Shown: positions 2,298 to 8,038 of the stretch, in pieces
Position numbering within the stretch: position 1 is the stretch's first letter
Layout: every line of letters begins with the position of its first letter
DNA from: an uncultured delta proteobacterium
Lineage (GTDB): Bacteria; Desulfobacterota; Binatia; JACPRU01
NCBI GenBank assembly: GCA_963745025.1
Contig: CAVUWD010000002.1
Location: 192,001 to 256,000 of the forward strand
Direction: 5' to 3'
DNA length: 64,000 nucleotides
Notes under the pieces: generated by a model
Told to the model about the DNA's origin: nothing
The model's database searches: none
The model's input: the letters and a program-made list of their open reading frames with translations, nothing else
Program-made: the position numbers and the translations under genes

Positions 2298-3142
2298 GAA
2301 CGAGCCGCACCGCGGTCTTCGTCGTCGCGGCGGCCCTCGCACTGCCGGCGGCGCACGCGCTCGCTTGGGGTCTCGCGACCCATCGTGCGATCGAGGAACA
2401 AGCGATCGAGACGCTTCCCGATCCGCTGCGATCGTACTTTCGCTCCCATCGCGCAGAGATCTCGGAATGGTCCGTCGAGCCGGATACGGTCCTGCGTGAC
2501 CGCGACGGTGAGAAGGAATCCGTCAAGCACTTCATCGATCTCGATCTCTACGGCGCGCCGCCGTTCGCCAGCCTGCCGCGCTCGTATGACGCGGCGGTCG
2601 AGCGCTTCGGCGAGCACGTCGTGAAGGAGCGAGGCACGCTGCCGTGGACGATCGAGGAGGCGCATGCGCGGCTGGTGCACGAGATGCGCGCCCGCGATTG
2701 GCGCGCCGCGCTGCGCACGGCCGCGTACGGAGGTCACTACGTCGCGGACGCGACGATGCCGCTTCACGTGATCTCCGACTACGACGGCCGGAAGAGCGGC
2801 AGCCCGGGGATCCACAAGGTGGTCGAGCACGCGCTCGTCGACGCGCGGCTCCGCGAGTACATGCGCCGCGCGCGGGCGACGTTCGCGCCGGCAAGCGTCG
2901 CGGCTTACGGTCGGGAGCGCGTCTTCCAAACCCTCGTCGAGAGCTACCATGCCGCTGCGGAGCTACTCGCGGCCGATCACCAAGCGCGGCGTCTCGGCGA
3001 TCTCGGGTCCACGGCGTATCTCGACGTGCTCGACCGCGAGGCGGGCTCTCTGCTGGCCGCCCGGCTCTCTCGCGCCATCGAGGTCCTGGGCGCGTTCTGG
3101 CTCTCGGCGTGGCAGGAAGCGGACCGGCCCTCACCCTCGTAG
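2294..3142 (+). CDS. Secreted S1/P1 nuclease / zinc phospholipase C superfamily protein
   Basis: Signal peptide ends ALA, mature N-terminus WGLATH, then EPD, HFIDLD, HYVADATMPLH and HKVVE zinc-ligand motifs. ATGA overlap with the ecfT stop. Confidence 0.8.
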   Translation: MRTSRTAVFVVAAALALPAAHALAWGLATHRAIEEQAIETLPDPLRSYFRSHRAEISEWSVEPDTVLRDRDGEKESVKHFIDLDLYGAPPFASLPRSYDAAVERFGEHVVKERGTLPWTIEEAHARLVHEMRARDWRAALRTAAYGGHYVADATMPLHVISDYDGRKSGSPGIHKVVEHALVDARLREYMRRARATFAPASVAAYGRERVFQTLVESYHAAAELLAADHQARRLGDLGSTAYLDVLDREAGSLLAARLSRAIEVLGAFWLSAWQEADRPSPS

Positions 3143-3169
3143 CGCACCTCGTGGCCGCAACCGAAACGT

Positions 3170-3455
3170 CGTCGGCCTACGGATGCATCAGTCTTCGCCT
3201 CCGGCGCTCGAGATCCGGAAGCGCTGGACTTTCCGGTCGGCCCGGATTCGGGTCGACCGGAAAGTCCAGCCACCGCGCGCAAGCGCGGAAGACGATAGAC
3301 CAGTGTCGAGGGTGATTGTCTTCCGCGCTCCGCGCGGTTGCGGTCGGTTGTGATCGACCCGAGTACGGGCCGCGACCACAACCGACCGCGTCCGTCTCCT
3401 CGAGCGTGGTGCGAAAACTGATCGGGTGCGGGTCACGTCGGCCTACTGATGCATC
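3170..3455. repeat. Family-1 multi-hairpin intergenic element, copy 1, bracketed by 20-bp direct repeats
   Basis: Hairpins at 3223-3270, 3273-3288, 3289-3322, 3323-3337 and 3340-3389. Outer stem pairs 3187-3212 with 3399-3422. Direct repeats CGTCGGCCTAC(G/T)GATGCATC at 3170-3189 and 3436-3455. Confidence 0.85.
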
Positions 3456-3510
3456 GCATCGCATCTCATCTCATATCTTGGTCTGTAAGCGAGAATCGTA
3501 CCCCAGTAGC

Positions 3511-4563
3511 TCAATAGAGGATCAGCGGCTTTAGGATCCCGTCCTCCTTCGTCTCCATCATCCGAAACGCGCGCTCCACCTCTGTGAACCGGAAGCGGTG
3601 GGTGGTCATCGGTGTCGGGTCGAAGCGGCCAGTCTCGATGAGGCGTAGAAGCCGTGTCATCCGCTCGTGCCCTCCGGGGCAGAGGACGCCGCGGATCGTC
3701 TTGTCGGCCATGCCGAAGCCGAAGTCGGCGAGCGGGATGCGCAGCGAGTCACCGGATTCTCCGTGGTAGCCGACGTTCGAGATCACGCCGCCCGCCCGCG
3801 TGGCGCGGATGCAGCTCTCGAAGGTGACCGGCAGGCCGACGGCCTCGATCGCCGCGTCGACGCCGGCGCCGCCCGTGAGGCGAAGAATCTCGGCCACGGG
3901 GTCGCCGCTAGCCGGATCCACGACGACGTCGGCGCCGAAGCGCTTGGCGAGCCTCTGACGCTCGGGCTTCCCTTCCACCGCGATGACGAGACCCGCGCCG
4001 GAGAGCCGCGCCCCCGCGGTCGCGCAAAGCCCGACCGGGCCTTGCGCGAACACCGCCACCGTGCCGCCGAGCGGAATCTCCGCTTCCTCGGCGGCCGCGA
4101 AGCCGGTGCTCATCATGTCGGTCGTGTAGAGCGCCTGCTCGTCGGAGAGCCCCTGCGGAATCGGCGCGAGGTTGTAGTCGGCGTCGTTGACGAGAAAGTA
4201 TTCGGCGAGATTGCCTTCGCGCTGCGCGGTGAACTTGTAGCCGCCGAGCGTGCCGCCGCACTGCGCGCCGTGGCCACGCTGGCAAAAGCTGCACTTGCCG
4301 CAGGGGGTCACGGCGCAGACCGCCACTCTGTCGCCCTCGCGAACGGCCGTCACGTGAGAGCCCGCGCGGTGGACGACGCCGACACTCTCGTGACCGAGGA
4401 CGCGCCCCTCGGGTATGGGCAGAACGCCGTGAACCGTGTGCACGTCCGAGGTGCAGACGAGAGAGGCGGTGGTGCGCACCACCGCCTCGTTCGGTCCGGG
4501 CTCAGGGTTGGGCTTATCGACGAGGCCGACTTTGTTCTTGCCGAGAAAGGCGAATGCCTTCAC
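3511..4563 (-). CDS. Zinc-dependent NAD(P) alcohol dehydrogenase (secondary alcohol dehydrogenase-like)
   Basis: CTSDVH, GHE, four-Cys loop CGKCSFC..C, DMMSTGF, GPVG. AAGGAGG precedes the GTG at 4563. Confidence 0.9.
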   Translation of the reverse strand: MKAFAFLGKNKVGLVDKPNPEPGPNEAVVRTTASLVCTSDVHTVHGVLPIPEGRVLGHESVGVVHRAGSHVTAVREGDRVAVCAVTPCGKCSFCQRGHGAQCGGTLGGYKFTAQREGNLAEYFLVNDADYNLAPIPQGLSDEQALYTTDMMSTGFAAAEEAEIPLGGTVAVFAQGPVGLCATAGARLSGAGLVIAVEGKPERQRLAKRFGADVVVDPASGDPVAEILRLTGGAGVDAAIEAVGLPVTFESCIRATRAGGVISNVGYHGESGDSLRIPLADFGFGMADKTIRGVLCPGGHERMTRLLRLIETGRFDPTPMTTHRFRFTEVERAFRMMETKEDGILKPLILY

Positions 4564-4655
4564 GATGTTTCCTCCTTGTTCTATGACGGCATGTAGCGAA
4601 CGGCAGAGCAAGGCAATCCTTCGATGGTGAAAGTCGCGGCGATCTTTTGACAACG

Positions 4656-4730
4656 GAGCTCGCTTGGCAGGACGCTCGAACGGAGATGGGATCGCGACCA
4701 GCGGGAGCGATCTACGGCGCAGCCTCCCAG
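4656..4730 (+). repeat. Family-2 REP-like unit, degenerate copy
   Basis: CTCGCTTGGCAGGA...ATCGCGACCAGCGGGAGCGATCTACGGCGCAG matches the units at 19822-20086, 38631-38774 and 47177-47317. Confidence 0.75.
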
Positions 4731-4741
4731 CCACGGCGGGG

Positions 4742-5671
4742 ATGCGACGCTTCGGGCTCGGCCTCCCGAACGCATTCCCGCTGGGCGAGCCGAATCTCGA
4801 CTTCTTGCGCTTCGCGGAGCGAGCCGAAGAGCTCGGCTACGACGCGCTGTGGGCAGGCGACCACGTGGTGTTTCACGTTCCCCGGCTCGAGATCTTCACG
4901 GTGCTCGCCGCAGTCGTGACGAAGACGCGTCGCGTGACCGTCGGGCCGGGCGTGCTGCTTCTCTGCCTGCGCAACCCCGTGCACGTCGCGCAGACCGTCG
5001 CGACGCTCGACCACCTCTCCGCGGGGCGCTTCGTGCTCGGGGTGGGTGTCGGGGGTGAGCACGTGAAGGAGTTCGAGGCTTCGGGCGTGCCGCGCCGCGA
5101 GCGCGGCGCGCGCACCGACGAGGGGCTCGCGATCGTGCGCAAGCTGCTCACCCAGCCTGAGGTCGACTACGAAGGTCGCTTCTGGCGGCTCCGCGGCATC
5201 TCGATGAAGCTCCGCCCGCCACACCTGCCCCCGGTCTGGGTCGGCGGGCGGGCCGAGGCCACGTTCCATCGCGTCGTCGCACATGGCGATGCCTGGTTTC
5301 CGGGCTTCGTCACCCCGGACGCGTACCGCGAGGGCTCGCGCAGGATCGACATCCTCTGCCGCGAGGCGGGCCGAGACCCGGCGACGATCGAGCGCGGGCT
5401 CTATCTGTTCGTGAGTGTCGACGCGGATTCCGCTCGCGCACGCCGGCAAGCCGAGGAGTTCTTGAGCCGCAACTACAACATGCCCTTTGCGCCGTTCGAG
5501 CGTTACCTGATCGCGGGCCGTCCGCAGCAGTGCATCGAAGCGGTGCGGCGTCATCTGGACGCGGGCGTGACGCACCTGACCGTCCGCTTCGCGACTGCCG
5601 AGCCGCTGCGGCAGCTCGAGCTCTGGAGCGCGGACGTCCTGCCGGCCCTGCGCGAAATTGCGGTACCCTGA
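4742..5671 (+). CDS. LLM-class (luciferase-like) flavin-dependent oxidoreductase
   Basis: AEELGYDALWAGDH, RNPVHVAQTVATLDHLSAGRFVLGVGVG, PPVWVGG. Confidence 0.9.
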   Translation: MRRFGLGLPNAFPLGEPNLDFLRFAERAEELGYDALWAGDHVVFHVPRLEIFTVLAAVVTKTRRVTVGPGVLLLCLRNPVHVAQTVATLDHLSAGRFVLGVGVGGEHVKEFEASGVPRRERGARTDEGLAIVRKLLTQPEVDYEGRFWRLRGISMKLRPPHLPPVWVGGRAEATFHRVVAHGDAWFPGFVTPDAYREGSRRIDILCREAGRDPATIERGLYLFVSVDADSARARRQAEEFLSRNYNMPFAPFERYLIAGRPQQCIEAVRRHLDAGVTHLTVRFATAEPLRQLELWSADVLPALREIAVP

Positions 5672-5686
5672 ACGAGGGAGGCGACC

Positions 5687-6251
5687 ATGAGACTCACCAA
5701 ACCGAGAATCGAGCCACTGCCCGAAGCCGAGTGGAACGACGAAGTGCGGGGGCTGCTGCAGCCGAGCCGCACGAATGCCGGTGACGGCAAGGTGCTGAAC
5801 GTTCAGGCGACGATCGCGCGTCACCCGAAGCTCCTCAAGCGCTGGCTCGTGTTCGGCAACCACGTGCTCGTCAAGTCGACGCTGCCGGCGCGCGAGCGCG
5901 AGATCGTGATCCTGCGCATCGGCTGGCTGTGCCGGTCGGGCTACGAGTGGGGCCAGCACGTGATGATCGGCCGGCGCGCCGGGCTCGGCGACGAGGAGAT
6001 CGAGCGCATCCGCAAGGGCCCCGACGCGCCCGGCTGGAGCCCGTTCGAGTCGGCGCTGCTGCGCGCCACCGACGAGCTGCACGACGACGCGTTCATCAGC
6101 GACGCGACCTGGCAGGCGCTCGCGGCTCGTTACGACACGCAGCAGCTCATGGACCTCGTGTTCACGGTCGGGCAGTACAACCTGGTGTCGATGGCGCTGA
6201 ACACGCTTCGGCGTGCAGCTCGACGAAGGCGTGCGCGGGTTTTCGACATGA
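5687..6251 (+). CDS. Carboxymuconolactone decarboxylase / AhpD-like protein, one frameshift near 6209
   Basis: REREIVILRIGWLCRSGYEWGQH. The C-terminus [13 protein letters not shown] lies in a shifted frame and ends in an ATGA overlap at 6248-6251. Confidence 0.82.
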
Positions 6252-7053
6252 CCGGGCGCCTCGCCGGCAAGGTCGCGATCGTCATCGGCGCCGGCCAGAC
6301 GCCCGGCGACACGATCGGCAACGGCCGCGCGACCGCGCTCCTCTTCGCGCGCGAGGGCGCGCGCGTCCTGGTCGTCGATCGCGACGAAGCTCCGCGCGCG
6401 AGACCGAGGAGAAGATTCGCTCCGCGGGAAGCGAGGCCGCGGCGTTTCGTGGCGACGTGACGTCACCGCGAGCCGACTGCCGGGCGATGACGCCGGACGT
6501 GCGTCGACCGCTACGGGCGGATCGACGTGCTGCACAACAACGTCGGCATCGGCGACGGCGACGCCGGTCCCGTGCATCTCACGGAGGAAGCCTGGGACCG
6601 CATCCTCACGGTCAATCTGAAGAGCGTGATCTTCACCGTGCAAGCACGTGCTGCCGGTGATGCGCGCGCAAGGCAGCGGCGTCGATCATCAACGTCTCGT
6701 CGATCGCCGCCGTCTGCGCGGTGGGCGATGCGTCGCCTACAAGACCTCGAAGGCCGGGGTCAACGCCTCACGCAGTCGCTCGCGATCGGCAACGCGAAGT
6801 ACGGCATCCGCGCCAACGTGATCATGCCCGGACTGATGAACACGCCGATGGCGATCGAGGGGATCTCTCGCGAGCGCGGCATCGCGAAGGAAGAGTTGAT
6901 CGCGCGCGCGACGCGCAGGTGCCGCTCGGCGGGAAGATGGGCACCGCGTGGGACGTGGCCTACGCGGCGTTGTTTCTCGCCTCCGACGAGGCGCGGTTCA
7001 TCACCGGCGTGCTGCTGCCGGTCGACGGCGGGCAGAGCGCACGGATTGGTTAG
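6248..7053 (+). CDS. SDR family oxidoreductase with several frameshifts
   Basis: Pieces across frames: [12 protein letters not shown]...GNGRA, LHNNVGI, Yxx[33 protein letters not shown]. Confidence 0.8.
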
Positions 7054-7070
7054 GCCCAATAGGAAGTACG

Positions 7071-7192
7071 AGCGCAACCGCGCGTAAGCGCGGAAAACGA
7101 TAGCCCACCGAATCGGCCTATTGCCTTCAGCGCTCCGCGCTGTTGCGCTTGGTTTTCGTCGATCCGAGTACGGATCGACAAAAACCAAGCGC
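7071..7192. repeat. Family-1 multi-hairpin intergenic element, copy 2
   Basis: Four-way junction closed by 7071-7077/7143-7149, with hairpins 7078-7093, 7094-7127 and 7128-7142, plus an AGTA-loop hairpin at 7145-7192. Colinear with 3271-3389. Confidence 0.85.
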
Positions 7193-7270
7193 GCCTTTCG
7201 CATCGCCGAGCATCCTACCGAGACTCAAGGCATTGCGGCGCCGCGAAGATCGCTTGTCCTTCCGTGGGCC

Positions 7271-8038
7271 TCACACGGCCGAGATGCCGCCGTCCACCAT
7301 GTAGACGCCGCCCGTGCAATAGCGGCTCTCGTCGCTGGCGAGGAAGAGCATGAGGTGCGCGACTTCCTCGGCCGTGCCGTAGCGTGCCATCGGGATGCCG
7401 GCGAGAATCTGCTGCTTGGCCTGCGCCGCTTGTCCGGGCGCGAAGCCGTCCTCGAGCGATCGCATCATCCGGGTTTCGATCGGCGCGGGATTCACGGTGT
7501 TGACGCGGATCTTCAGCGGGGCGCACTCGAGCGCGGCGGTGCGCATCATGCCGACGACGGCATGCTTGCTGGTCACGTAGGCCGAGACGCCGGCGAAGCC
7601 GTGGATGCCCGCGACCGACGAGGTGATGATGATCGAGCCGCCGCCCCGCTTGGCCATCTCGGGGATGACGGATCTCAGGCCGAGCCAGACGCCGCGGACG
7701 TTCACCTCGATCACCCGGTCGAAGACTTCGATGGGATACTCCGGGATCGGCTTCACCGCTCCCTCGAAGCCGGCATTGTTCAGCAACACGTCGATCCCGC
7801 CGTAGCGTTCCACGGCGGCGCGCACGTAGCGCTCGACGTCCTCGGGCCGCGTCACGTCGGCGCGCACGCAGCTCGCGTGCTCGGCGCCGAGTGTCGCAAC
7901 CGCCTGACGAAGCGGCCCTTCGTCGAGATCCACCAGGAGGACCTTCGACCCTTCGGCGACGAAGCGCGTCGCCGCGGCAAGACCGATGCCGCCCGCCCCT
8001 CCCGTGATCACCGTGATTCGACCGTCGAGCTTGCCCAT
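7271..8038 (-). CDS. SDR family oxidoreductase
   Basis: [14 protein letters not shown]...YVTSK, IRVN, VDGG. Confidence 0.93.

Follow-up and report, generated by a model that had tools for sequence, protein, structure and literature searches.

A family of hairpin-rich intergenic repeats in an uncultured delta proteobacterium, read as an IS66-type MITE with covarying stems

Introduction

Near the beginning of the window (the whole stretch of 64,000 nucleotides that was analysed) lies an intergenic sequence dominated by strong hairpins, of which a second, incomplete copy is found further downstream. An earlier note on this DNA compared the two copies, observed that their stems remain paired through compensatory changes, and suggested that selection acts on structure, as in a non-coding RNA or in a non-autonomous element mobilised by an HUH/RAYT transposase. 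The locus raises two separate questions: what kind of element this is, and why its stems covary.

Architecture of the two copies

The four stems described in the earlier note are all present in the sequence, and copy 1 is far more stable than its shuffled counterparts. Folded as RNA it reaches -165.5 kcal/mol against -98.7 +/- 5.2 kcal/mol for the shuffles (z = -12.75), none of 200 of which equalled it, and as single-stranded DNA its two strands give -101.8 and -102.1 kcal/mol. The parts of the two copies are listed here, with terminal inverted repeats abbreviated as TIRs.

3172-3179, left 8-bp target-site duplication TCGGCCTA, inside a longer 19-nt direct repeat (3171-3189)
3180-3437, plus strand, copy 1 of the putative MITE, 258 bp
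3180-3199, plus strand, left TIR; sister copies read GTGATGCCTCAGTCTTCGCC, compared with the IS end GTAAGGCCTCAGTCTCCGT
3224-3269, plus strand, hairpin H1, stem of about 21 bp, loop GATT here and TACT in most copies
3273-3288, plus strand, hairpin H2, CCGCGC-loop-GCGCGG
3289-3322, plus strand, central variable hairpin H3, with a G-T pair here (GACGAT/ATTGTC)
3323-3337, plus strand, hairpin H4, CCGCGC-TCC-GCGCGG
3340-3389, plus strand, hairpin H5, stem of about 20 bp, loop AGTA, its apex the reverse complement of the H1 apex
3408-3437, plus strand, right TIR in a long, subfamily-specific form that terminates GGGTCAC(G/A)
3438-3445, right target-site duplication TCGGCCTA, followed by CTGATGCATC and then by a (GCATC)3 repeat
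7069-7236, minus strand, copy 2 of the putative MITE, 3'-truncated, of the C20:81142 subfamily
7218-7236, minus-strand reading, left TIR of copy 2
7145-7192, minus-strand reading, H1 of copy 2
7128-7142, minus-strand reading, H2 of copy 2
7094-7127, minus-strand reading, H3 of copy 2
7078-7093, minus-strand reading, H4 of copy 2

The interior is a palindrome of palindromes, arranged H1-H2-H3-H4-H5, whose outer hairpins, H1 and H5, are inverted versions of each other, as are H2 and H4. Because of this quasi-palindromic build, nhmmer matches both strands of most copies, and an alignment of the plus strand of copy 1 with the plus strand of copy 2 was workable. That alignment, on which the previous comparison had been based, paired H2 and H5 of copy 1 with the reverse complements of copy 2's H4 and H1, respectively. 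Copy 2 is on the minus strand, and the GNRA loops that had been assigned to the plus strand in both copies are not homologous to each other. Copy 2 retains the first 11 nt of H5 and is without the remainder of that hairpin and the right TIR; it has 90% identity to C20:81176-81308.

The outer closing stem that had been thought to bound an element of about 235 nt is real, but it consists of the TIRs, and the element is longer than that, running from 3180 to 3437. To go by the list of open reading frames, those that cross this interval (82-223 aa, in a 66% G+C genome) are frame artefacts only. Downstream of the right duplication, CTGATGCATC resembles the left end of the element.

The direct repeat around the window copy is not a clean 8 nt but 19 nt, GTCGGCCTAC(G/T)GATGCATC, located at 3171-3189 and at 3437-3455. 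The final 9-10 nt of this repeat resemble the element's own left end, and the whole 19 nt is present once in an empty allele. The target may by chance have carried an end-like sequence, or the left end may have been converted later.

A dispersed family with inverted-repeat ends and target duplications

The element had been described from two copies, and collection of its relatives with BLASTN and nhmmer greatly enlarges that number. An nhmmer search of its own assembly (5.65 Mb, 20 contigs, 65.9% G+C) with copy 1 as query gave 146 hits in 86 loci, and a profile built from 29 full-length copies gave 216 hits in 102 clusters, which resolve into about 93 elements that occupy 18,710 bp on 16 of the 20 contigs. 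The copies are 103-280 bp in size. The subfamily of copy 1 comprises eight copies that are 95-97% alike over 235 nt, together with two related copies that have an insertion in H3; beyond the eight close copies there are about 25 that are 82-90% alike, and the others are diverged, internally deleted or truncated.

Copies start and finish with inverted repeats of consensus GTAAYGCCTCAGTCTTSGCC, starting GTAA or GTGA. The end sequences are GTAATGCC, GTAACGCC and GTGATGCC, and the subfamily of the window has GTGATGCC... with a longer right end. Target duplications were counted in the 25 of the 93 elements in which both TIR cores have at most one mismatch, whereas in the other 68 one or both cores have diverged, have been truncated or belong to the long right-end form. 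At the exact predicted ends the flanking 8-mers matched at 8/8 letters in five of the 25, at 7/8 in three and at 6/8 in three, and when shifts of up to 2 nt were allowed 12 of the 25 matched at 7/8 or better, compared with one of 75 control 8-mers taken 15-35 nt further out. In about half of the testable copies, then, the duplication is imperfect or displaced by 1-2 nt. Inverted repeats at the ends, coupled with 8-bp target duplications, point to cut-and-integrate transposition of the DDE type.

Two 186-nt forms that lack H5 (C12:40621-40806 and C16:413575-413760) have near-perfect duplications of their own, at 6/8 and 7/8 letters, which implies that movement is possible without every hairpin. 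Four further loci match the H1-H4 part of the profile only.

For the one locus of copy 1, public sediment metagenome contigs were compared with positions 2700-3900. In a 1971-nt contig from run X3, 2700-3184 and 3461-3900 are contiguous and 276 nt are skipped, as expected of an empty site: the element together with a single flanking repeat accounts for 266 nt, and the presence of (GCATC)1 in place of (GCATC)3 just downstream for the other 10. The filled allele is represented by a contig from run X1, which spans 3407-3900 and breaks off within the element. Related populations therefore differ in the presence of the window copy. In G001, the other genome of the genus, DNA-level counterparts are lacking for the sequences that flank the two window copies, and the element alone matches.

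A candidate parent insertion sequence

The same genome contains a 1882-bp single-ORF IS in three copies that are 99.9-100% identical, one at C19:80230-82111 and two in tandem on C6. Its 468-aa transposase has zf-IS66 and DDE_Tnp_IS66 domains (PF03050, 133 bits, three full copies) and scores 218.5 bits against a cut-off of 180 for NF033517, 'IS66 family transposase'. An ORF of 105 aa upstream in the IS scores 27.0 against a cut-off of 27.2 for DUF6788, and TnpB_IS66 was not found in the genome (completeness 92.65%). The IS ends, GTAAGGCCTCAGTCTCCGT, start GTAA, and on either side of the C19 copy is an 8-bp duplication, AACGATCG. Comparison of the IS end with the consensus end of the putative MITE gives a match at 16 of the first 20 nt, rising to 14/15 in some subfamilies, and ..CCTCAGTCTCCGTA is identical in the IS end and in some subfamilies. 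Beyond the ends the two have nothing in common, and the apex motifs of the hairpins are absent from the IS.

The IS66 family is described as having inverted repeats that start GTAAGCG and an 8-bp direct repeat (PMC11946415), and the captured members ISPpa5a and ISPpa7 are reported with direct repeats of 8 (PMC3281130). ISDge4 of Deinococcus geothermalis, which belongs to the ISBst12 group, is described with a single ORF, the TIRs GTGACTACTCAGCA / GTAACTGCTCAGCA and an 8-bp direct repeat (PMC12898284). The two features by which derivation from IS66 was judged here, inverted repeats starting GTAA and an 8-bp direct repeat at the insertion site, were both found. Read as a MITE, the element is a non-coding form of 130-270 bp, derived by deletion or otherwise from a DDE-transposon family, and retains the transposon ends alone. 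By this account the 468-aa IS66-family transposase encoded by the co-resident 1882-bp single-ORF (ISBst12-type) IS would act on the copies in trans, and would make the 8-bp staggered cuts in the target; such mobilisation is suggested by the similarity of the ends alone.

Other candidates for the parent were rejected. The IS66-family IS that this query found in G001 (a genome that is 82% complete) has ends, GTAACCGTTCAC, that do not match, and its transposase is 32% identical. C13:220311-222971 holds an outer-membrane efflux protein and an HlyD-type gene and no IS, and C16:85420-87875 consists of two copies of the putative MITE around panB-panC. The mobiliser of the G001 copies would be expected to bear GTAA(T/G)GCCTCAGTCT ends.

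The genome also encodes two proteins with a Y1_Tnp domain (42.4 and 39.8 bits, with the cut-off at 23). Coupled with the G+C-rich palindromic modules of the element and their conserved apices, this could be taken to indicate a REP/BIME-like unit, or a non-autonomous element of the IS200/IS605 type that a Y1 (HUH/RAYT) transposase moves in single-stranded form. We give almost no credence to this reading, against which stand the TIRs and 8-bp target duplications of the copies and the match of their ends to an IS66-family DDE element. To our knowledge, Y1 transposition makes no target duplications. Nor do the copies cluster near the Y1_Tnp genes, as would be expected of a REP/RAYT system: the check for a flanking RAYT gene that the earlier note had proposed found no copy within 5 kb of either gene and none within 8 kb of one of them. 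The suggestion of a non-autonomous mobile element was correct, and its attribution to HUH/RAYT was not.

Covariation of the stems and symmetry of the strands

Compensatory change was analysed in an alignment (413 columns) of the window copy with 55 other loci among the 93 elements, making 56 copies, each 200 nt or longer. The conservation of pairing that had been proposed from two copies holds in this larger sample. The RNAalifold consensus has 52 pairs, 31 of which show compensatory double changes (17.4 +/- 2.0 in shuffles), and there are 76 further pair types against 53 +/- 3, with a covariation score of 0.294 against 0.098. Paired cells amount to 97.3% of 2897 (86.8 +/- 0.3 in shuffles) and double-change cells to 241 (48 +/- 6), although the shuffles ignore the kinship of the copies and the structure was derived from the same alignment, so that these cell counts exaggerate how many events were independent, and more trust can be placed in the two pair-count measures. 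None of 500 shuffles attained any of the covariation measures, and sliding the partner by 1-3 columns reduced pairing to 28-39%. Double changes are found in 15 of the 20 pairs of H1 (helix 2 of the consensus) and in 11 of the 16 pairs of H5 (helix 5). H2 corresponds to helix 3 and H4 to helix 4, and H3 falls outside the RNAalifold consensus because it is poorly aligned. Copies in the sister genome have the same architecture and contribute additional stem variants.

The kinds of mismatch that occur in the stems are informative about the level at which they are constrained. An RNA selected on one strand should accept G:U and shun A:C. On the element strand, outside two pairs in which a wobble is dominant, G:T occurs in 42 cells and A:C in 41, and when 32 copies in co-directional contexts are re-oriented by the transcript of the flanking genes there are 21 G:U and 27 A:C. 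The expected asymmetry is not seen. A mismatch is retained in most copies as G:T in H1 and as its mirror image, A:C, in H5, and pair 78-98 is GU in 28 copies, AU in 13 and GC in 8. Since the constraint looks alike on both strands and independent of the direction of transcription, the hairpins are in our view a feature of the transposon's DNA, where they would form hairpins or cruciforms, and not the mark of an RNA gene.

Genomic setting and possible roles in RNA

Genes were called by a crude codon-usage method that gave 5248 genes and 84.6% coding, and which replaced a GC3-threshold caller that was too strict (2916 genes, 58%). By this measure 86 of the 93 elements are intergenic and seven overlap a called gene by more than half, although the caller is rough and these seven genes may be false. 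The gaps that hold an element lie between co-directional genes in 50 cases, convergent genes in 18 and divergent genes in 18, in line with background gaps of 2651, 774 and 777, respectively (chi-square p = 0.64). The position of both window copies between convergent genes, which had attracted attention earlier, is real, but is no trait of the family. Relative to co-directional genes 28 elements have the same and 23 the opposite orientation (p = 0.58). In co-directional contexts, the copies with scores of 140 bits or more give 19 and 7, respectively, a skew that an RNA-level role could explain and that we treat as a weak hint.

That the element might be a free-standing structured RNA gene family, repeated by chance, is suggested by its strong structure and covariation and by the lack of a matching Rfam family. 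Indeed, a cmscan of 2900-7500 on both strands, with E up to 10, gave chance-level matches only, the best on the element being sbcD RNA, whose 19.5 bits (E = 1.2) fall short of the gathering score, 40, and so the earlier view that no known family is involved stands. The RNA gene reading itself can hardly be credited. The TIRs, target duplications and empty site are foreign to it, as is the existence of about 93 copies, many of them truncated or deleted. Strand preference of any kind is lacking, since there is no G:U excess, both strands fold alike and orientation is random. A consensus scan of 3050-3600 found neither a sigma-70-like promoter nor a T-tract terminator. An RNA-library contig from run X18 extends over 2902-3152, with no cover of the element, which speaks neither for nor against transcription.

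It is the combination of TIRs, target duplications, matching IS66 ends and strand symmetry that leads us to judge both the structured-RNA and the RAYT readings wrong. The features that mark a MITE were all found by the tests applied, in that the element is short and non-coding, has TIRs and a duplication of fixed length, occurs as dispersed copies, has an empty site and is accompanied by an autonomous element with matching ends. With a high degree of confidence, which extends to the identity of the element and not to the cause of its covariation, we conclude that 3180-3437 is an IS66-type MITE, and neither an RNA gene nor a RAYT element. It represents a new family within a well-known class of element, and one whose internal hairpins are unusually well kept.

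A role of the hairpins in RNA, of use to the host, would be compatible with this identity. Copies situated downstream of genes could act as bidirectional terminators or stabilisers of mRNA 3' ends, in the manner of REP/BIME and bcr1, in which case the covariation would reflect host selection on transcripts. The intergenic location of 86 of the 93 elements in a genome that is about 85% coding, the high stability of the stems on either strand, the orientation skew of the high-scoring copies and the precedent of bcr1, which is reported to be transcribed and to show compensatory changes (PMC3184786), are all in keeping with this idea. We nevertheless consider it improbable: the contexts match the background and divergent promoter regions are occupied as frequently as 3' ends, G:U is not in excess on the transcribed strand, terminator-like and promoter-like sites were not found in the interval scanned, and orientation overall is random.

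The cause of the covariation

The pairing of the stems may have been retained because lineages of the element were selected for it, or because templated correction copies one arm of the quasi-palindromes onto the other. Stem columns are less variable than unpaired columns (heterozygosity 0.175 versus 0.361), which implies constraint or correction. We put the chance that selection, acting on lineages of the element or through the host, is responsible at about even.

A purely mutational origin, by which template switching within a strand during replication would copy one arm from the other and structure would be under no selection, seems to us possible rather than probable. Templated mutagenesis of quasi-palindromes is an established process. 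In its favour, the intermediate mismatches are symmetric between G:T and A:C, the stems are near-perfect on both strands, and the near-identical subfamily of copy 1 multiplied to eight copies while carrying 2-3 stem mismatches, with A:C mismatches shared between the copies, so perfect pairing was not required for spread. However, stem columns that are half as variable as unpaired ones suggest purifying constraint and not correction alone, and efficient arm-to-arm correction should have erased the lasting G:T mismatch of H1 and its A:C counterpart in H5.

A more specific proposal is that the internal palindromes are required in cis for movement by single-ORF IS66 (ISBst12-type) transposases, for example because extrusion of hairpins or cruciforms could draw the ends of a 250-bp element together for synapsis. 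If so, the covariation would be a record of selection for transposability. This is unlikely, being weakened both by the 186-nt derivatives that moved without H5 and by the spread of the near-identical subfamily with its mismatched stems.

Implications and distribution

Recognition of the element as a probable MITE means that the lead towards a new structured RNA was a false one, and documents a MITE family, together with its likely parent IS, in an uncultured soil/sediment lineage whose mobile elements are undescribed. For annotation, about 93 intergenic sites of this genome should be masked as repeats ahead of searches for non-coding RNAs or terminators. As the transposase and its presumed substrate are both available, the dependence of ISBst12-type transposition on interior structure is directly testable. 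The family also provides a data set for weighing selection against templated repair in palindromic DNA, with at least 56 copies, two 20-bp stems and many double changes.

The element has a narrow distribution. Of 41 relatives searched by BLAST, own genome included, three carry it, namely the own genome, G001 (26 matches) and a member of one other genus of the family (four partial matches); the 33 genomes sampled from beyond the family gave no match. A wider sample of the phylum, in which two candidates were scored per genome, found it in none of 400 other genomes. A strict 45-nt pattern, run against 185,579 species genomes from which records of the own genome were possibly left out, was matched at four loci of one MAG labelled 'uncultured delta proteobacterium'. 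Among the titles and abstracts listed in literature searches on IS66, MITEs and compensatory change, none describes an IS66-derived MITE.

Relation to known elements

The closest known relatives are the IS66 elements of the ISBst12 group, exemplified by ISDge4 (PMC12898284), with which the MITE has in common ends that start GTAA or GTGA, followed by a ..CTCAG.. motif, and an 8-bp target duplication. The 1882-bp IS resembles this group in having one transposase ORF that passes NF033517 and in that TnpB_IS66 was not found. The MITE differs from this IS in the absence of a transposase; only about 20 nt at each end are common to both, and its five nested palindromes have no counterpart in the IS.

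Correia, ERIC and RUP elements are likewise TIR-bounded, non-coding and intergenic, and can be folded as RNA or DNA. They have other parent IS families and other duplication lengths, and their fold is mostly that of one TIR against the other, whereas the MITE described here has five separate internal hairpins and its consensus stems covary. REPs have neither TIRs nor target duplications and are associated with RAYT genes, in contrast to the MITE, which has both TIRs and duplications and no RAYT gene nearby. The likeness to the REP/BIME sequences of enterobacteria and pseudomonads lies elsewhere, in a G+C-rich mosaic of extragenic palindromes that is almost always intergenic and forms stable hairpins over hundreds of bases (PMC3184786). 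REP units are given as 21-65 bp, and the REPs of Pseudomonas are said to favour convergent gene pairs (PMC3184786), a bias that the MITE does not share.

Among the repeats described in the same source, bcr1 of the Bacillus cereus group is comparable in being a short, dispersed, non-autonomous repeat with short direct repeats, in which compensatory changes retain a cruciform-like fold (PMC3184786). It is about 155 bp in length, has 5-bp direct repeats and is reported to be transcribed, whereas the MITE is about 250 bp, is flanked by 8-bp duplications and has ends of the IS66 type (PMC3184786 for bcr1).

Variation within the MITE hairpins

Most copies of the hairpin-rich MITE retain a single mismatch amid the otherwise perfect stems of the internal hairpins H1 and H5 (columns 78-98 of A2, the alignment of 56 copies), which takes the form of G:T in H1 and of its mirror, A:C, in H5. 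Pair 78-98 is GU in 28 of the 56 copies, AU in 13, GC in eight and GG in six. The retained mismatch may be the mark of a protein contact.

In a variant of the subfamily found in the window, a further small hairpin is made by an extra insertion within the internal hairpin H3, holding CTGTCCTAAGGACAGCACC. The variant is also present, at window 3303-3314, in contigs of the public sediment metagenomes X1, X2 and X3. Its copies in the window's own assembly (G000) are:

G000:C16:85416-85688, MITE with the H3 insertion
G000:C5:173241-173511, MITE with the H3 insertion

Insertion sites and neighbouring repeats

At three sites an insertion lies exactly 8 bp away from another end or end-like sequence:

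G000:C6:484414-488185, tandem pair of the 1882-bp IS66-family element, with CTTCTGGA between the copies and again after the second copy
G000:C11:414169-414527, MITE next to MITE, the right duplication of one adjoining the left end of the other
window 3438-3455, end-like CTGATGCATC after the right duplication of MITE copy 1

From this spacing, the element may have a target preference for its own ends.

Several short repeats were also observed. A pentanucleotide repeat, (GCATC)3, occupies window 3451-3465 and is reduced to one unit, 10 nt shorter, in the contigs of runs X1 and X3. The heptamer CCGGTAG/GGCTACC forms recurring short tandem arrays in intergenic DNA (repeat families D5 and D8), and one array of this type, at C8:227765, carries an inserted MITE. 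A second repeat family, unrelated to the MITE, is a REP-like palindrome of 19 nt, TCGCGACCAACGGGAGCGA, whose units often sit inside repeats of 40-70 nt. With up to three mismatches allowed it has 137 matches in the genome, none of which lies within 1.5 kb of either of two genes for the HUH/RAYT-type transposase domain Y1_Tnp. The heptamer arrays and the REP-like units both recur in the window:

window 10441, 18534, 38991, 53836, 53865, 54876 and others, heptamer arrays
window 4692, 19858, 19903, 19967, 20046, 38656, 38722, 47211 and 47279, REP-like units

Genes beside MITE copies

Immediately upstream of MITE copy 2 is a short-chain dehydrogenase gene whose Pfam match is divided between two reading frames. 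The gene could be frameshifted or a pseudogene, or the assembly could be wrong here:

window 6527-7087 and 6721-7053, + strand, divided short-chain dehydrogenase match

Elsewhere in the genome, panB-panC is flanked by two inverted MITE copies (locus L002, G000:C16:85416-87891), an arrangement that resembles a composite transposon.
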